NCBI GenBank assembly: GCA_029932915.1
Contig: JAOZPE010000013.1
Coordinates: forward strand, 17 to 64,016
Direction of reading: 5' to 3'
Length of the DNA: 64,000 nt
Source of the DNA: Candidatus Krumholzibacteriia bacterium
Lineage (GTDB): Bacteria; Krumholzibacteriota; Krumholzibacteriia; JAJRXK01
The notes under the pieces were generated by a model. It saw only the letters and a program-made list of their open reading frames with translations, searched no databases and was not told the origin of the DNA. Positions 1,045 through 11,327 of the stretch are shown here, piece after piece. A program made the translations under genes and the position numbers. Each line of letters opens with the position of its first letter. Within the stretch, counting starts at the first letter, position 1.

Positions 1045-2733
1045 TCAGCCCTGCTGCGCGTCCTCCAGTCGTTGGCGTACCTCCTGCTGGATGGCCCGCC
1101 CGCGTTCCATGACTTCTTCGAGCGCCTTTTCGGCTCGCTTGCGGATCTGCCCCGCCCACTCGGCGTCGTCGTCCAGCCCGGCCAGATTGATGAGCACGTT
1201 GTAATAGGCGCCCTCGGCGCAGGTCATGCTGCACAGCGCGGCCACGCCGGCGTCACTCAGGCTGTTGGGATTGCCTCGCCGGGCGACCTGCTCGGTCAGC
1301 TCCAGGACAGGAAGGTTGCGCTCGAGAACCTCCAGCGGCACCAGCGTGGCCTGCCGGTTGGCCTCCTTCATGGCTTCCTCGCGCGCCGCTTTCTCCTGGT
1401 CGGTCTTCTTGGGAAGACGCCGGGCCGCGATCACCGCGTTGAAGGCCTCCGTATCGGCGTCGACCGCCCGCATGAGCCAGTCCTTGTGGGGTTGGGCCTG
1501 GACGGCGACCTCGTTCATCGCATCCCAGTCGTCCTCCTGTCCCTTCCTTCCCACGGTGAGATTGGCCACCATGGCGGTGAGCCCGGCGGCGAGGCTGCCG
1601 CACAGGGCCGCCACGCTTCCTCCTCCGGGCGCGGGCGACTCGCTGGAGAGTTCGTGGCCGAATCCGGTGAGGGTGAGGTCGCCCAGGCCCTTCTTTCCCT
1701 TGGCCAGGCGGTACTCGATGATCTTCTCCTGGGGATCGAAGCGGGCGACGTCGTGCAGGCCCAGGCTGCGGATGGCGACCTCGATGACCTCGGGCTCGGG
1801 CAGCCCGGCGCTCTTGCCCTGCTTGCGCAGGTAGTGGCGACCGGCCATGAGCATGGGCTCCAGGGGGACCAGGCCGACGATCTCGCTGCCGGTGACCCTC
1901 AGCCCGCGTTTCTGGGCCTCCTCGCAACAGGCGTCGAAGACCTCGTGCAGACTGCTCACCTTGTAGTTGGTCAGGTTCATGGAGATCTGGGCCAGCTTGT
2001 ACTCGTCGATGTACCAGCCGACGCCCTTGACGTTCTTGAAGCGGCCGGGAACCTTGATGGCCTTTCCGTTCTCGTCGCGGACGATGCGGCCGTTCGCATC
2101 GCGCTTGGCCCGGCCCTGTTCGCGGATGTCCAGGGCGATGTCACTGGCTTTCTTCTTGTCCTGTGTATTGAGATTGACGTTGTAGGCCAGCAGGAATTCA
2201 CGGGCGGAGATGGCGGTGGCGCCGGTGCGGGGATTGAAGACGGCCGGGCCGAAATCGGGTTTCCATTCGGGCTTCTTCAGTTTCTCCGGCAGTCCCTCGT
2301 ATTCACCGCTGCGCACGTCGGCCAGGTTGACCCGTTCGGGACGGGTGGCGGCATGCTCGTACAGGTAGACGGGGATGGACAGCTCTTCGCCCACCCGTTT
2401 GCCCAGACGGCGTGCCAGCTCCACGCACTCGTCCATGGTGATGTCGGCGACGGGCACGAAGGGGCAGACATCGGTGGCGCCCATGCGAGGGTGCTCACCG
2501 TGATGCTTGCTCATGTCGATGAGCTCGGCGGCCTTGGCGATGCCGCGGAAGGCTCCCTCCAGTACCGCTTCGGGCTCACCGACCACGGTCACCACCGTGC
2601 GGTTGGTGGCCGCACCGGGGTCGACGTCCAGGACCTGACATCCGTCGACGCCGTCGATGGCGGCCGTGATCTGATCGATCACCGCCAGATCGCGGCCTTC
2701 GCTGAAATTGGGTACACATTCGACGATGGCCAT
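1045..2733 (-). CDS. ftcD: Bifunctional glutamate formimidoyltransferase / formiminotetrahydrofolate cyclodeaminase
   Basis: Starts MAIVECVPNFSEGRD; HPRMGATDVCPFVP; C-terminal cyclodeaminase motif SPAPGGGSVAAL. Start moved to ATG 2733. Confidence 0.93.
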   Translation of the reverse strand: MAIVECVPNFSEGRDLAVIDQITAAIDGVDGCQVLDVDPGAATNRTVVTVVGEPEAVLEGAFRGIAKAAELIDMSKHHGEHPRMGATDVCPFVPVADITMDECVELARRLGKRVGEELSIPVYLYEHAATRPERVNLADVRSGEYEGLPEKLKKPEWKPDFGPAVFNPRTGATAISAREFLLAYNVNLNTQDKKKASDIALDIREQGRAKRDANGRIVRDENGKAIKVPGRFKNVKGVGWYIDEYKLAQISMNLTNYKVSSLHEVFDACCEEAQKRGLRVTGSEIVGLVPLEPMLMAGRHYLRKQGKSAGLPEPEVIEVAIRSLGLHDVARFDPQEKIIEYRLAKGKKGLGDLTLTGFGHELSSESPAPGGGSVAALCGSLAAGLTAMVANLTVGRKGQEDDWDAMNEVAVQAQPHKDWLMRAVDADTEAFNAVIAARRLPKKTDQEKAAREEAMKEANRQATLVPLEVLERNLPVLELTEQVARRGNPNSLSDAGVAALCSMTCAEGAYYNVLINLAGLDDDAEWAGQIRKRAEKALEEVMERGRAIQQEVRQRLEDAQQG

Positions 2734-2843
2734 GGGACTCTCCGTGGGCTCGTGGAGTACGGGAAACGACCGGGCAGAGAAGATAGGCCGCTGTGGACGA
2801 GGATTCAAGGCGGCCGGAGCCGTGTCCTCGACGTGGAGGCGAG

Positions 2844-3665
2844 ATGGGTACCTTGGAGGGAAAGACCCTGTTCATCACCGGCGCCAGCCGGGGGATCGGC
2901 AAGGCCATCGCCTTGCGGGCGGCCCGCGACGGCGCCCGGGTGGTGCTGGCGGCCAAGACCACCCGCGAGCATCCTCGTCTGCCGGGGACCATCCACAGCG
3001 CAGCGGCGGAGATCGAGGCGGCCGGCGGGCGGGCCTTGCCGGTGAAGTGCGACGTGCGCCGGGAGGAGGAGGTGGAGGCCGCGGTCACGGCGGCCGTCGA
3101 GCACTTCGGGGGCATCGACATCCTGGTGAACAACGCCGGCGCTCTCGCCCTCACGCCCACCCTGGAGACCTCGATGCGGGTCTGGGACCGTCTCTTCTCG
3201 GTGAACGCCCGTGCCGCCTTCCTGTGTTCGAAGGTGTGTCTTCCCCACCTGATGAACGCGGAGAATCCGCACATCCTGAACATCTCCCCGCCTCTGAACT
3301 GGGACCCGAGATGGTTCAAGGATCACGCCGCCTACAGCATGTCCAAGTACGCGATGAGCGTCTGGGTGATGGCGATGAGCGCGGAGTTCGCCGAGCAGGG
3401 GGTCGCGGTGAACGCCCTGTGGCCGCGCACGATCATCGCCACCGCGGCGGTCCGGAATCTGCTGGGCGGCGAGCCCATGGTGCGGCGCAGCCGCAAGCCC
3501 TCGATCATGGGCGATGCGGCCCGGGCCATCCTGGTGCGCGAGAGCCGCTCGTGTACCGGACGCTTCTTCCTCGACGAGGATGTGCTGCGGGAGGAGGGCG
3601 TCGTGGACTTCGACGCCTATGCGGTGGAGCCGGGTCAGGATCTCGTGCCGGACCTCTTCGTGTGA
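2844..3665 (+). CDS. SDR oxidoreductase (HSDL2-like)
   Basis: ITGASRGIG, ILVNNAG, YSMSK catalytic motif, VNALWPRT; GGAGG RBS before ATG 2844. Confidence 0.9.
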   Translation: MGTLEGKTLFITGASRGIGKAIALRAARDGARVVLAAKTTREHPRLPGTIHSAAAEIEAAGGRALPVKCDVRREEEVEAAVTAAVEHFGGIDILVNNAGALALTPTLETSMRVWDRLFSVNARAAFLCSKVCLPHLMNAENPHILNISPPLNWDPRWFKDHAAYSMSKYAMSVWVMAMSAEFAEQGVAVNALWPRTIIATAAVRNLLGGEPMVRRSRKPSIMGDAARAILVRESRSCTGRFFLDEDVLREEGVVDFDAYAVEPGQDLVPDLFV

Positions 3666-3689: not shown

Positions 3690-5351
3690 TCAGCTCAACA
3701 GCTCGGAGAGTTGTTGGCGCAGTTCGGTGATCCCGAAGGGCTTGGACAGGAATGAGGTCTTCTCCCCGCCGAGATAGTGTGGCTGGGTCTCCAGCTCATC
3801 GAAGCCGCTGGTGATGAGGACCGGAAGGTCATCGTTGCGCTGGCGGATGCGCTCGAGGAGTTCCTCTCCGCTCATGCCGGGCATCGTCATGTCGGCCATG
3901 ACCAGTCGATAGCGCCCGGCGTTCTCCTGGAAGCTCTTCCATCCCTCGTTGCCGTTCACCGCGACCTCGACCTCGAAACCGAGGACCTCGAGGAGACGGC
4001 GGGTGACGTTGCGGACGGTCTCCTCGTCCTCGACCAGGAGGATCACTCCTTCGCCCTGCCATTCCTCCGAAGCGGCCGTTTCCTTCTCACCCTTCGGCGG
4101 GGCCTTGTCCTTGGTCGCGAGGAAGCAGACGCGGAAGATGCTGCCGCGGCCCACCGAGCTCTCGACATGGATCGTGGCATCCATTCCCCGGATGATGCCG
4201 AGGGTCGACGCCAGGCCCAGACCGCGTCCGGCGAACTTGGTGCTGAAGAAGGGATCGAAGATCCTCGACAGGGTCTCCTTGTCCATTCCCTTCCCGTCGT
4301 CCTCCACCTCGAGGAAGACGTATTCACCCTCGGGGAGATCGCGGTCGATCCAGGTCGATCGCAAGACTTCGCGGGTGCAATTCAACACACCGGTGCGCAC
4401 CCGGATGTGTCCCCCGTCCTTCTCGATCGCCTCGGCGGCGTTGACCAGCAGATTCAGGATGACCTGGCGGATCTGTCCGGCGTCTCCGTAGATGGCCGGC
4501 GGCGAGGGAAGGAGCTCGATGTCCAGGCGGGCGTTGCGCGGAACCGAGACCCGGAAGAGGTGGCGCATGTCCTCGACCAGGTCGGACAGGTCCAGCAGCT
4601 CGGGCTCGGTGTGTCCACGGCCGGCGTAGATGAGCATGCGGCGGGCGAGGTCGGTGGCCTTCTCGGCGGCGCGGCGGATCTCGTCGACGTGGGCCCGGGC
4701 CGGGTGACCGGCGGGGAGGTGTTCCAGGGCGAGTTCGGCGCTGCCCCGGACACTGCTCAACAGGTTGTTGAAGTCGTGGGCGATACCCCCGGCCAGGACG
4801 CCCAGGCTCTCGAGCTTCTGGGCGTGCAACACCTGTGCCTGCAGGTTCTCGCGCTCCTCTTCGGCCTTCTTCCTCGCCGTGATGTCGGTCATGGTGACCA
4901 GGTCGGCGGGCCGTCCCTGGAAGCGCACGGTCTTCGAGTAGATCTCCACCCAGCGGACCTCGCCGTCGGAGGAGACGATGCGCAGGGGATAGTTGGTCAC
5001 CACGTCCCGGTCGCCGCGCATCTTCCGGTTGATCTGGTCGATGACGAAATCGCGGTCCTGGGAGTGGATGATGCGGGCGATCTGTTCGGAGGGAGGCATC
5101 ACGTTGAGCTCGGCGAGGCTGTAGCCGACCATCCTGGCGAATGCCTCGTTGACGAACTTCGCCTTGGAGTCCTGCAGAACGAGGATTCCCATCATCGACT
5201 GTTCGGAGATGACCCGGAACTTCTCTTCGCTGATCCGTAGCGCTTCCTCTGCCGCGTCCCGGCGCCGCTCGGCCTCTTCGAGCATGGCCAGGCGCTGCTG
5301 CAGGGCGAGCAGCTTCGCGTGGAGTTCCTCGTAGTCTTCCGCATGGGGCAT
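3690..5351 (-). CDS. PAS-domain hybrid sensor histidine kinase / response regulator
   Basis: Coiled coil, PAS domain, H-box AGGIAHDFNNLL, N/G/F boxes (NLLVNA, DDGKGM, FDPFFSTK, GRGLGL), C-terminal REC domain (LVEDE, DMTMPGMSG, KPF). Start placed at MPHAED. Confidence 0.9.
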   Translation of the reverse strand: MPHAEDYEELHAKLLALQQRLAMLEEAERRRDAAEEALRISEEKFRVISEQSMMGILVLQDSKAKFVNEAFARMVGYSLAELNVMPPSEQIARIIHSQDRDFVIDQINRKMRGDRDVVTNYPLRIVSSDGEVRWVEIYSKTVRFQGRPADLVTMTDITARKKAEEERENLQAQVLHAQKLESLGVLAGGIAHDFNNLLSSVRGSAELALEHLPAGHPARAHVDEIRRAAEKATDLARRMLIYAGRGHTEPELLDLSDLVEDMRHLFRVSVPRNARLDIELLPSPPAIYGDAGQIRQVILNLLVNAAEAIEKDGGHIRVRTGVLNCTREVLRSTWIDRDLPEGEYVFLEVEDDGKGMDKETLSRIFDPFFSTKFAGRGLGLASTLGIIRGMDATIHVESSVGRGSIFRVCFLATKDKAPPKGEKETAASEEWQGEGVILLVEDEETVRNVTRRLLEVLGFEVEVAVNGNEGWKSFQENAGRYRLVMADMTMPGMSGEELLERIRQRNDDLPVLITSGFDELETQPHYLGGEKTSFLSKPFGITELRQQLSELLS

Positions 5352-5576
5352 GATGGACCCGATGCCTCTGCTCTGGGGTTGGCGCGGACGGCGGCCGCCA
5401 TGGTGGACCGACGGGTGGCCGCCGGGAGGAGGATAGCAGGATTCCGTCGCGGCGGCGAGGAGCGAGAGCCCTTCATCCGGTGGCCTGGGTTGTGGAGTCG
5501 CCGGTGGAGACCGGCTATGATCATCTCCCCGTCCGGAGAGCCGCGGCGCCGGGGCGTCGCCAACGAAGGAGCCCAG

Positions 5577-6359
5577 ATGGATTCGAATCGTCCGCATCAT
5601 GCTCTCGTGTGTGGAGCCAGCATGGGGATCGGCGAGGCCGCCGCCTTTGCCCTGGCGCGCCGCGGTGTCGCCTTGACCATCCTCGCGCGCAACGCAGAGG
5701 CGCTCGAAGAGCGGGTCGAGCGTCTGAAGGCGGAAGGCGCGCCGTGGGCGCTTGCCCTGCCCGCCGACCTGGACGATCTGTCCACGGCCGAGCCGGCGGT
5801 GCGGGCACACGTGGAGGAGCACGGTCCCGTCCACATCCTCGTCAACAACTCGGGAGGACCGCCCTTCGGCCCCCTTCTGGACGCCGGAGCGGACGACCTG
5901 CTGCGGGCCTTCTCCCGTCACGTCCTGGCCTCGCACCTGCTGGTGCAGATCTGTCTGCCGGGGATGCAGGCCGACGGTTACGGGAGGATCGTGAACATCG
6001 TTTCCACCTCGGTGTACGAGCCCATCCCGGGCCTGGGGGTGAGCAATACCATCCGGGCCGCAATGGCCGGCTGGTCGAAGTCGATCTCGCTGGAGTTGCC
6101 TCCGGGCGTGACCATCAACAACGTGCTGCCCGGGTTCACCGACACCGAACGGCTGGCCGAACTCAAGACCGCCCTGGCCCGCCGGCGCGGGGTCCAGGAG
6201 AGCGTCATCGAGGCGGAGTGGTTGGCGCAGATCCCCGAGGGCCGATTGGCGCAGCCCCGCGAGCTGGGCGAGTTCATCGCCTTCCTGGCCTCACCGGCCG
6301 CGGCCTACATCCGCGGACAGAGCATCGCCGTCGACGGAGGCAAGATGCGCAGCATCTGA
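5577..6359 (+). CDS. SDR oxidoreductase (FabG-like)
   Basis: CGASMGIG, ILVNNSGGP, NNVLPGFTDT, IAVDGG; AAGGAG RBS before ATG 5577. Confidence 0.88.
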   Translation: MDSNRPHHALVCGASMGIGEAAAFALARRGVALTILARNAEALEERVERLKAEGAPWALALPADLDDLSTAEPAVRAHVEEHGPVHILVNNSGGPPFGPLLDAGADDLLRAFSRHVLASHLLVQICLPGMQADGYGRIVNIVSTSVYEPIPGLGVSNTIRAAMAGWSKSISLELPPGVTINNVLPGFTDTERLAELKTALARRRGVQESVIEAEWLAQIPEGRLAQPRELGEFIAFLASPAAAYIRGQSIAVDGGKMRSI

Positions 6360-8806: not shown

Positions 8807-8922
8807 GACCCCCGGACGGGCAAGTGCCGTGCCGCCGGCAAGAGGGTGTCGTCGAGGAGGACGCAGGGGGGCGCGTTGTGGTAGCTTTCGGACGAGAGTT
8901 CCCGGTGGAAGGATGGTTTCCG

Positions 8923-9639
8923 ATGCGTCTGGGCGTTCTGGCGGATATCCACGGCAACCTCCCCGCGCTGGAGGCGGTGTTGGCCGACGCTGGGCAACGC
9001 GGAGTGGATGGCTACGCCTGCCTGGGCGACATCGTCGGCTACGGCCCGTATCCAGCCGAGTGCCTGGAGCGTCTGCGGAGTCTGGACTGCCACATCGTCC
9101 AGGGCAATCACGAAGCGGCCCTGCTGGGTCTGGCCTCGGCGGGGCGCTTCAACGACTATGCTCGAATTGCGCTCAAGATGACGCGCAAGTGGTTGGGAGA
9201 AGAGGAGTTGGAGTACCTGCGGAGTCTCGAGCCCAGGTTGGAGATCGGAGGCGAGATCCTGCTCTGCCACGGCTCTCCGGACGATCGGGACGAATACCTC
9301 ATCTTCGAGCATCAGATGGAGAGGGTGCTGGAGAAGGCCAGCTACTGGCTGACCTTCTGCGGCCACAGCCACCTGCAGTTCCTCCACGACGGGGAGACCC
9401 TGCACCGGGGTCCCCAGGAGGGCTTCGAACTCTCCGACGAGCGCCGCTACCTCATCAATCCCGGAAGCGTGGGGCAGCCGCGGGACGGCGACCCCCGGAC
9501 GGCCTATTGCGTCGTGGACACCACCGCCCGCCGGCTGGACCAGATCCGGCTGGACTACGACCTGGAGAAGACGGTCCGGGCCTACCAGGACGCGGAGCTG
9601 CCCGAGTACTCATGGCGGAGATTGCGGGAGGGACGGTAG
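8923..9639 (+). CDS. Calcineurin-like metallophosphoesterase
   Basis: DIHGN, GDIVGYG, GNHE, HGSP, GHSH and NPGSVGQPRDGD motifs. Confidence 0.9.
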   Translation: MRLGVLADIHGNLPALEAVLADAGQRGVDGYACLGDIVGYGPYPAECLERLRSLDCHIVQGNHEAALLGLASAGRFNDYARIALKMTRKWLGEEELEYLRSLEPRLEIGGEILLCHGSPDDRDEYLIFEHQMERVLEKASYWLTFCGHSHLQFLHDGETLHRGPQEGFELSDERRYLINPGSVGQPRDGDPRTAYCVVDTTARRLDQIRLDYDLEKTVRAYQDAELPEYSWRRLREGR

Positions 9640-9760
9640 CCGGGCGGGAGGATCCCGGATCCGCATGGGCGGCCCGCCGAGCCGGGGAGCCCCGGGAGCG
9701 GGTGGCGAAGCGATCCCTATCTGTATGGTGGACAACGAGATATGAGCCCACCGGCCCAAC

Positions 9761-9791
9761 GGGAAAGAGGAGGCTGCAGGCAGCCTCCTCT
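9761..9791 (-). terminator. Intrinsic terminator-like hairpin ending the candidate ncRNA (possibly bidirectional)
   Basis: GAGGAGGCTGC / GCAGCCTCCTC inverted repeat (9767-9790), followed on the minus strand by TTTCCC. The U-tract is short. Confidence 0.6.
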
Positions 9792-10038
9792 CTGATCACC
9801 GTTCGGCTAACCACGTTCACCGTTTCCGGTTGATCAACGATCCGGGCGGTAGGCTGCCTTCAGCCTCTGCTCTTCGTTCAAGCCACGGGGGTTGCCGGCT
9901 GAGCCGGTTTCCTTCGGGCATATGCCCAGAGACCGTGGTGACGGACAACACGATCCGGGTGCCCCACGCCCCCCGATCCGCACCGTCCGTTCCAGCGACA
10001 GCAGATGGGAAACCCATCGGTGCTACCGCCCAGGATCA
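9761..10038 (-). ncRNA. Candidate structured non-coding RNA of unrecognised family (~280 nt)
   Basis: Long-range closing helix (10023-10037 with 9839-9852), several nested helices, G-U pairs and a GAAA tetraloop that form only on the minus strand, upstream promoter and downstream terminator. Confidence 0.6.
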
Positions 10039-10044
10039 CGCCCA

Positions 10045-10073
10045 TGTATACTTTACCCATCGGGAGAGTGCAA
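10045..10073 (-). promoter_or_regulatory. Sigma70-like promoter TTGCAC-N17-TATACA
   Basis: -35 at 10068-10073 and -10 at 10045-10050 on the minus strand. The predicted start (~10038) coincides with the first base of the closing helix. Confidence 0.5.
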
Positions 10074-10190
10074 GTGTCTTTTCAGGGAATGCGCCGTGGA
10101 GTAAAGTGCCGCTGCGGGGCAAGACATGGTCCAAGTGGGGACTGCGCTCGCGGGGACCACCCCGGCCGCTCAATCATGGAATCCTGAGGC

Positions 10191-11327
10191 ATGGCCGCAA
10201 ACCCTTTTCGTTTCGGAACTCCCATCGATGAAGCCCTGCTCATCGACCGCGAGCAGGAGCGCGAGCAGCTCCTCCGCCAACTGCGTCTGGCCAAGGGCCT
10301 GGCCGTGGTCGGGCCGCGCGGCACGGGCAAGAGCAGTCTCCTGCGGGCGGTGGCCGCGTCGTGCCGCGCCGAGAACATGGACGTGGCGTGGGTCGACCTG
10401 TTGCCGGCCATCAATTCCCGCCGCTTCGCCGAGCTCTATGCCTCGGCCCTCACGCTGGAACCTTCGCACACCGTCGAGGACATGCGCGAGGCGATGCGCC
10501 GTCTCATCCCCCACTTCTCTCCGCGGGTCACGATCAGCGGTGAGGGCCGTCCCGCTCTCCAATTGGATCTGTGGGATCGCGAGAGGGACATCCAGGCGCT
10601 GATGGATCGCATCTTCGAGGTTCCCGGGGAGATGCAGGCGCGCAGCGGCCGGCCGCTGGTGGTGGTCTTCGACGACTTCGAGGATCTGCTGTCCACCGAC
10701 CAGGACGATCTCCTGCGCAATCTGGCTGCGGCCGTGCGCAAGCAGATCGAGGTGGCCTACGTCTTCGTGCTGCGGCGCGACGCGACGCTGCGCCGCACCT
10801 TCCTCGAGCCCCGCAGCCCCTTCTACCGCCTGGCCGAGCCGATGAAGATCGAGCCGGTGCCGGCCGGTGAGATGAGCCAGGGTCTGCAGGTGCTCTTCGA
10901 GGAACAGGGGGTCGCGATCGAGCACGAATTGGTCTACGAGATCCTCACCGTCGCCGCCCACGTTCCCCACTACGTGCAGATGCTGGCCCACACGGTCTTC
11001 GAGGAAGCGCGTGAGGAGGGCCGGGCGAGGATGGAACACCTCAAGGCGGCCATCTCCCACGTGTTGGAGAGCCAGGCCTACGCCTTCAAGTTCCAGTGGG
11101 ACCAGCTCTCACCGCACCAGAAGAACCTCGCGCTGGCCATTGCACAGGGACACACCGAGAAACTGCATTCACAATTGATGGTCGTGCGCCTGGGACTGGG
11201 ATCGCCCAGCACGGTGGCGAAGAACCTGAAGGCGCTCGACGCACGGGAGATCCTGCGGCGCACCGAAGAGGAGATCCGTTTCGTCGACCCCTTCTTCGGT
11301 CTCTGGCTGCAGCGGAGAATGGCCTGA
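10191..11327 (+). CDS. AAA/STAND-like 'archaeal ATPase' family protein with C-terminal wHTH
   Basis: NPFRFG start, IDREQE, Walker A GPRGTGKS, Walker B VVVFDD, PHYVQML, C-terminal FVDPFFGLW. Confidence 0.8.
   Translation: MAANPFRFGTPIDEALLIDREQEREQLLRQLRLAKGLAVVGPRGTGKSSLLRAVAASCRAENMDVAWVDLLPAINSRRFAELYASALTLEPSHTVEDMREAMRRLIPHFSPRVTISGEGRPALQLDLWDRERDIQALMDRIFEVPGEMQARSGRPLVVVFDDFEDLLSTDQDDLLRNLAAAVRKQIEVAYVFVLRRDATLRRTFLEPRSPFYRLAEPMKIEPVPAGEMSQGLQVLFEEQGVAIEHELVYEILTVAAHVPHYVQMLAHTVFEEAREEGRARMEHLKAAISHVLESQAYAFKFQWDQLSPHQKNLALAIAQGHTEKLHSQLMVVRLGLGSPSTVAKNLKALDAREILRRTEEEIRFVDPFFGLWLQRRMA

Follow-up and report, generated by a model that had tools for sequence, protein, structure and literature searches.

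What does a 551-bp gap without a convincing gene contain, when it lies between two plus-strand genes of a bacterium from a phylum with, to our knowledge, no cultured members? The gap in question runs from the end of a metallophosphoesterase open reading frame (ORF; position 9639) to the start of an ATPase ORF (10191), within a 64,000-nt stretch of Candidatus Krumholzibacteriia DNA (contig JAOZPE010000013.1, positions 17 to 64,016, forward strand) that we call the window and number from its first letter. An earlier examination of the letters alone, here the sequence-only reading, had proposed that the minus strand of this gap specifies a stand-alone, trans-acting noncoding RNA (ncRNA) of an undescribed family. 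We describe here the gene for this RNA, RNA1, with its strand, structure and conservation, as well as its complementarity to, and co-occurrence with, a second, separately encoded RNA, RNA2. We are confident that the gap holds a true gene for a structured ncRNA of an undescribed family, RNA1, and nearly as confident that RNA1 acts in trans, as it has its own promoter and terminator, lacks a conserved ORF, matches no Rfam family, and has diverged by substitutions that preserve its structure. More cautiously, we lean towards a model in which a loop of RNA1 captures RNA2 by loop-loop pairing, so that RNA1 would serve as a sponge, decoy or scaffold and a second loop would bind another partner.

Is RNA1 a transcription unit of its own, and from which strand is it read? 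A TTGCAC-N17-TATACA promoter had been proposed, predicting a start at the first base of the helix that closes the RNA, and a terminator-like hairpin had been noted at the far end. Both are where they were said to be, and both are conserved. The promoter was invariant in 6 of the 6 homologues first found, and the combination of a -35 box, a 17-nt spacer and a -10 region bearing the motif GTAAAGTAT is present in 15 of 15 distinct sequences, the motif itself being identical in all 16 copies read (15 distinct). The predicted start, at about 10037, is 154 nt from the start of the ATPase gene. Every RNA1 copy ends in a G+C-rich hairpin, differing in sequence, and then a T-rich run, for example UCCUUUUUUUG in genome G009. 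In the present genome a simple consensus scanner missed both signals; the TATACA hexamer ends in A and the U tract (UUUCCCGUU) is weak.

The extensive folding of the minus strand was also borne out, with a minimum free energy of -147.4 kcal/mol and a z-score of -3.45 against shuffles, but this energy is not specific to the strand: the plus strand also folds (z = -4.68), and fold energy alone therefore cannot decide between them. The minus strand is assigned because the promoter is conserved, the terminator covaries and carries a U tract, and the helices contain many G-U pairs. Many helix positions are G-U in most of the sequences, and would be mismatches if read from the opposite strand. A covariance model of the RNA1 core (R1, 197 positions) scores the locus at 202.7 bits on the minus strand versus 18 bits on the opposite strand. 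Might the gap encode a small conserved peptide instead? None of the ORFs is conserved across 15 homologues, the longest ones varying in frame, start and length, and 1-nt insertions or deletions occur in RNA1 within the genus; for these reasons we take RNA1 to be non-coding.

How widely is RNA1 distributed? It is a single-copy element in its own genome; all 10 genomes of one Krumholzibacteriota family carry a homologue, as do 6 metagenome contigs. BLAST finds RNA1 in all 4 congeners, at 85-90% identity, and in G005 of another genus, and in none of 31 genomes from other families of the class. R1 recognises it in 9 of the 10 family genomes; the tenth, G006, has a diverged copy beside the orthologous ATPase gene, which scores 28.8 bits and was recognised by its invariant motifs. 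A scan of metagenome contigs with a promoter-plus-loop pattern returned seven stretches, of which six are genuine copies (three new sequences); the seventh, L095, was set aside as a chance match. Across the phylum, a 16-mer of the loop, with at most one mismatch, matched 46 of 208 genomes, and a reversed control pattern matched at a similar rate. From these loop-motif matches 30 loci were taken, 21 of them outside the family, and about 25 further places were left out; none of the 21 has the promoter or the 3' motif, and their best covariance-model match reaches 14.3 bits (E 0.12). In viral contigs, neither the RNA1 two-motif pattern nor an RNA2 18-mer was found.

Comparison of the homologues suggests that the base pairs of RNA1 are kept by compensatory substitutions. 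In a model-guided alignment of 15 sequences (13 distinct, about six lineages), 91.9% of the cells of the core are paired, and 41 of 68 pairs have changed on both sides among the 13 distinct sequences, versus 21.4±2.6 in shuffled controls (0 of 500 reach 41) and 8-15 when the partners are slid by 1-3 columns; these figures are generous, the sequences being related and their alignment having been fitted to the model. Alignments made with MAFFT only contain compensatory changes in 17 of 91 and 18 of 45 pairs. The invariant parts of RNA1 are two unpaired segments, GCGUGGGGCACC at the tip of helix P4 and GUGGUUAGCC in the 3' domain, and it is the P2 hairpin and the central domain that differ in size and architecture between genera. 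In this genus the 3'-domain loop reads AACGUGGUUAGCCGAAC (9801-9817), and variants on metagenome contigs are AAGUGGUUAGCC (L101) and GCGUGGUUAGCC (L099).

A good part of the fold that had been drawn by eye survives this comparison. The closing helix (P1) and the side hairpin P2 are exactly where they were placed, each with compensatory changes, the long helix rich in G-U pairs was located as P4, and two hairpins of the central domain correspond to P6 and P7. Other elements fared less well. The proposed UCUGCU/AGCAGA and CCACGG/CCGUGG helices and a hairpin at 9851-9866 are mutually exclusive with P3 and P5, and stand only as alternatives to them. Within the genus plus G005 the two sets are inseparable, 94.1% against 96.0% paired with two double changes each; the preference for P3 and P5 comes only from the more distant genera, whose alignment is uncertain in the central domain. 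A GAAA tetraloop assigned to the 3' domain is not conserved, being UCCAU in G004 and UGUAU in metagenome contig L097.

Could RNA1 be a diverged member of a known family? Among the 4227 covariance models of Rfam 15 none matches the window at gathering scores. A permissive scan of 9600-10250 with E up to 10 gave eight chance-level matches, the best at 18.6 bits versus a threshold of 67. As had been judged by eye, RNA1 matches no RNase P, transfer-messenger RNA (tmRNA), signal recognition particle (SRP), 6S or riboswitch model. The genome's own housekeeping RNAs lie on other contigs and all exceed their Rfam cut-offs: RNase P RNA on C75 (286.6 bits), tmRNA on C31 (163.1), the small SRP RNA on C29 (80) and 6S RNA on C1 (80.6). 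In such literature as our searches opened to view, on the RNA1 motif strings and on Krumholzibacteriota ncRNAs, we found no description of it.

What, then, might RNA1 act upon? A 17-mer around its 3'-domain loop (AACGTGGTTAGCCGAAC) recurs at a single other site in the genome: contig C21, within 540 bp of intergenic DNA flanked by an M16 peptidase gene and an ORF for a small membrane protein. This site belongs to RNA2, a candidate small RNA (sRNA) with a conserved copy in all 10 family genomes. No credible copy was found in the other 198 of the 208 phylum genomes searched, where only two chance-level matches of 19-21 nt turned up, and RNA2 matches no Rfam family. Read from the strand complementary to the motif, it has a promoter-like element, T[AG]G[CT]CA-N17/18-TATGCT, which is TTGCNN-N17-TTACGG in another genus, and its closing stem of 13 bp contains two invariant G-U pairs, which the opposite strand would turn into A-C mismatches. 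The stem bears a 22-nt apical loop holding the motif, a strong terminator lies downstream, and the fold has a z-score of -6.3. The apical loop displays GGCUAACCAC, which is complementary to the 3'-domain loop of RNA1.

This extended complementarity is present in every family genome and is exceptional genome-wide. Uninterrupted Watson-Crick pairing between the two RNAs extends over 13-18 nt in each of the 10 genomes, while 100 shuffles per genome never exceed 9-12. Across the genome, no sequence complements the RNA2 loop better than RNA1, with 17 nt versus 11 for the next best. An 11-mer is found at both loci in every family genome, with three extra matches overall, which is the level of control patterns. 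Next to the core duplex, most of genus g1 has a flanking G-U pair, G004 has A-U, and 3 of the 4 genomes shown of other genera have G-C; in G008 and G009 the counted run already stops at this flanking G-U pair. Contiguous runs were counted because whole-length RNAduplex predictions for RNA1 and RNA2 gave unrealistically long interactions and uninformative z-scores. A likeness of the RNA2 loop to 16S helix 18 was also considered and dropped, only the 8-mer CGGCUAAC being shared with the 16S of the family. The present genome, 98% complete, has no assembled 16S rRNA gene; its relatives have one.

How would such a pair of RNAs work? In the model towards which we lean, a sigma-70-type promoter would start RNA1 at the first base of P1, and P1 encloses the variable P2, P3, the G-U-rich P4 capped by its invariant motif, and the central multi-hairpin domain. 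Beyond P1, the 3' domain presents the second invariant loop, and the intrinsic terminator comes after it. This loop could pair with the apical loop of RNA2 in a kissing contact of 13-18 bp, making RNA1 a dedicated partner of RNA2, and L4, the apical loop of P4, would bind a further partner, most likely a protein. Pairing of the two RNAs in cells, the direction of control and any output are inferred.

Several observations weigh against this model, in addition to the generous covariation figures mentioned above. The core 12-bp duplex is invariant on both sides, so that there is no true compensatory change within it, and the motif is only moderately accessible in RNA1 (mean unpaired probability 0.13-0.50) versus 0.53-0.76 in RNA2. 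The strand of RNA2 is itself a prediction; were the opposite strand transcribed, a shared protein-binding module would also account for these observations. The invariant L4 is explained by no complementary locus and by no known ncRNA of the genome: its 11-mer is about as frequent as control patterns and marks no second conserved locus, and no complement of more than seven Watson-Crick bases was found among the genome's tRNAs, tmRNA, RNase P, SRP and 6S RNAs and RNA2. A 14-nt exact complement of the P4 loop region at C96:36961-36974 lies inside a 908-aa coding frame, and was taken as chance. The narrow range of RNA1 may partly reflect limited search sensitivity. Is RNA1 expressed at all? The sequencing runs that contain most of the window are DNA metagenomes, and eight RNA libraries contain a small share of it. 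Four RNA libraries from four studies yielded one contig each, 154-203 nt long and about 90% identical, wholly inside 9801-10002, and derived from a relative resembling contig L097; these contigs give neither strand nor ends and may be DNA carry-over, and are a weak hint that relatives transcribe RNA1. No RNA-library contig matches the flanking genes at 80% identity, a result that is uninformative as the flanks of the relatives are too diverged.

The one constant neighbour of RNA1 is the divergent ATPase gene, which raises a different question: is the ATPase the partner? In all 10 family genomes, and on all 3 metagenome contigs long enough to tell, it lies next to RNA1 and is read away from it, even where the phosphoesterase and ABC-F genes have been lost or displaced. 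RNA1 could be a subunit or ligand of the ATPase, docking through L4, or the ATPase could regulate RNA1 from the 154-bp region that they share, and neither arrangement would conflict with pairing to RNA2. The protein has Pfam matches to nSTAND1, AAA_16 and ATPase_2, and its AlphaFold2 model (predicted local distance difference test score, pLDDT, 77.8) most closely resembles, in a fold search, 2QEN and 2FNA, two archaeal ATPases, and archaeal Orc1/Cdc6; the ATPase profile has no match among PDB sequences. A C-terminal winged helix completes what is a nucleic-acid-binding architecture. On the other side, the whole block is syntenic within one family, so that the adjacency may be no more than inherited gene order. 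None of the 13 distant ATPase homologues from other Krumholzibacteriota families (L075-L087) is preceded by an RNA1 motif. The most similar solved structures either bind DNA or have no known function, and we know of no member of this ATPase family that binds RNA. The ATPase may be functionally linked to RNA1, but we regard this explanation as doubtful. More speculative, and quite unlikely, is a three-part ribonucleoprotein in which one loop of RNA1 captures RNA2 by a kissing duplex and the other recruits the ATPase; if true, it would amount to a machine of a new class, guided or gated by RNA, in an as yet uncultured phylum. The shared-module idea replaces pairing altogether: AACGUGGUUAGCC would be a common protein- or ligand-binding module, carried in the same sense by two RNAs, the second locus being transcribed in the opposite direction. 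The module does sit within a CGG...CCG-type stem at both loci in the same sense, and the terminator hairpin beside RNA2 is bidirectional. It is, however, the antisense reading that a conserved promoter-like element and a terminator frame, no promoter-like element having been seen for the sense reading, and in every one of the 10 genomes the closing stem, read in the same sense, contains two A-C mismatches at positions that form G-U pairs on the other strand. We consider this idea improbable.

Two further possibilities do away with a trans partner for RNA1. One would think of a riboswitch when a closing helix and a multi-branched core are followed by a terminator, and a phosphoesterase gene does converge on RNA1 in most genomes, so that RNA1 might act in cis as a sensor, whether as a leader of riboswitch type or as an antisense transcript that a terminator controls and that runs into the convergent gene. 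The sequence-only reading had already held a cis role to be unlikely, and we concur: the downstream gene differs between genera, which argues against a cis leader, and so does its orientation. It is a convergent phosphoesterase gene in most genomes, a convergent ribulose-phosphate epimerase gene in G007 and a co-directional multi-haem cytochrome gene in G005, and no phosphoesterase match lies within 4 kb past RNA1 in G005 or G007. In addition, an invariant loop with a partner in trans lies between P1 and the terminator, and no riboswitch model matches; of all the readings we find this the least credible. That RNA1 is a ribozyme of a new class is also very improbable. Its large multi-branched fold, with invariant nucleotides limited to a few unpaired segments, would suit a ribozyme, but nothing indicates catalysis: we see no conserved context for a cleavage site and no link to mobile elements, introns or processing sites, and the architecture of the central domain varies between genera. 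A dedicated RNA partner for RNA2 remains the model that we prefer, on the terms given above. The positions of the RNA1 elements, the adjoining genes and RNA2 are collected in the table.

Table. Positions of RNA1 and its elements, the flanking genes and RNA2. Window positions unless a contig is named; pairs "double-changed" are changed on both sides.
Feature	Position	Strand	Remarks
RNA1 transcript, predicted	9758..10037	minus	about 280 nt here, 280-345 nt in relatives; bounded by conserved promoter and terminator
-35 box	10068..10073	minus	TTGCAC, TTGCAT, TTGCGT or TTGCCA at constant spacing in all homologues read
-10 region	10045..10056	minus	TATACA hexamer 10045-10050, overlapped by the invariant motif at 10048-10056
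P1, closing helix	10023..10037 with 9839..9852	minus	8 of 11 pairs double-changed, 95.6% paired
P2, hairpin	10004..10018	minus	variable in length, much longer in other genera; GAUGGG/CCCAUC becomes GACGAG/CUCGUU and GGCAAG/CUUGUU
P3	9997..10002 with 9853..9858	minus	GCUGUC/GGCAGC; central pair U-A, A-U or C-G
P4, long helix, with apical loop L4 (9960-9971)	9942..9989	minus	strands about 9972-9989 with 9942-9959; 18 pairs, 6 double-changed, several G-U
Invariant motif at P4 tip	9958..9969	minus	12 nt, unpaired, identical in 15 of 15 sequences
Central domain	9861..9935	minus	P5 enclosing P6, P7 and P8; architecture varies between genera
P5	9928..9935 with 9861..9868	minus	7 of 8 pairs double-changed
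P6, hairpin	9916..9927	minus	inside P5
P7, hairpin	~9890..9912	minus	inside P5
P8, hairpin	9869..9883	minus	inside P5
3' domain	9791..9838	minus	stem around the second invariant loop motif
Invariant motif of 3' domain	9805..9814	minus	unpaired, 15 of 15 sequences
Intrinsic terminator	9758..9790	minus	hairpin 9767-9790 and U-rich tail 9758-9766; paired, though divergent in sequence, in every genus
Metallophosphoesterase	8824..9639	plus	Pfam Metallophos_2; convergent, downstream of RNA1
AAA+/winged-helix ATPase	10191..11327	plus	378 aa; PF01637-like, Orc1/Cdc6-like fold; divergent from RNA1
RNA2, sRNA candidate	contig C21 of the same genome (G000), ~91529-91648 (locus L102, ~2930-3049)	minus	about 120 nt; promoter-like element, terminator, conserved

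The surroundings of RNA1 deserve a few further comments. Within the one family, the block of flavin adenine dinucleotide (FAD) oxidoreductase, phosphoesterase, RNA1, ATPase and ABC-F genes is broadly syntenic, with the ABC-F gene displaced in some loci. In genus g2 (locus L031 of G005, about 2087-3568, minus strand) the multi-haem cytochrome gene follows RNA1 on the same strand, the position taken by a convergent gene in other genera. The 13 distant ATPase homologues have no common upstream similarity past about 90 nt from the start codon. In five of them (L076, L079, L081, L082 and L085) a short similar stretch lies about 35-95 nt upstream of the ATPase start codon and also matches in reverse; it resembles an inverted repeat and may be an operator through which the winged-helix ATPase regulates its own gene. 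Elsewhere in the window, an ORF for a hybrid sensor kinase (3693-6290, minus strand; PAS, HisKA, HATPase and receiver domains) overlaps, as listed, a short-chain dehydrogenase ORF (5241-6356, plus strand). The kinase domains begin only at about residue 356, so that the long stretch which the ORF adds at the N terminus is probably spurious.

What does RNA1 add to what is known? As far as our literature searches reached, no lineage-specific RNA of the Krumholzibacteriota has been described, and RNA1 provides the phylum with a well-supported new structured RNA family. It also comes with a clean prediction, that two separately encoded, co-occurring RNAs with invariant loops complementary over 13-18 bases should pair, and this can be tested in vitro without a culture. 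If the prediction is true, RNA2 would be an sRNA with an intricately folded RNA, RNA1, as its dedicated partner, and RNA1 may have a tie to an Orc1/Cdc6-like ATPase. If the pairing proves false, RNA1 still counts among the few large ncRNAs of bacteria that await a function.

Neither a stand-alone structured ncRNA nor an sRNA with a partner RNA of its own is new as a kind; what is new here is the family, together with the combination. Like 6S RNA, SRP RNA, RNase P RNA and tmRNA, RNA1 is a single-copy RNA gene conserved across relatives, and its own promoter and terminator are usual for housekeeping RNA genes, but it matches none of their models and its range, as examined, is one family rather than all bacteria. 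With the cobalamin, lysine and FMN (flavin mononucleotide) riboswitches RNA1 shares a closing P1, a multi-way junction and a downstream terminator; unlike them it has no conserved co-directional downstream gene and no model match, and it has a 3' domain with a complement in trans. In form it resembles OLE, raiA, ROOL, GOLLD and HEARO, large structured RNAs of bacteria whose functions are obscure or have lately been probed. These are likewise intergenic RNAs, stand-alone or orphan and a few hundred nucleotides long, with multi-branched covarying folds, invariant loops and narrow ranges; RNA1 differs from these in its phylum, in having no Rfam 15 match, and in its dedicated complementary sRNA.

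As a pair, RNA1 and RNA2 recall the sponges SroC-GcvB and 3'ETS-leuZ and the kissing pairs CopA-CopT and RNAI-RNAII, with which they share separate RNAs and extended, conserved loop complementarity, one partner being the best genome-wide match of the other. Known sponges are mostly fragments of mRNAs or tRNA precursors, and known kissing pairs are mostly cis-antisense plasmid RNAs. The RNA1 site, in contrast, is carried by an independently transcribed and elaborately folded RNA of 280 nt, and its pairing with RNA2 is predicted from sequence.

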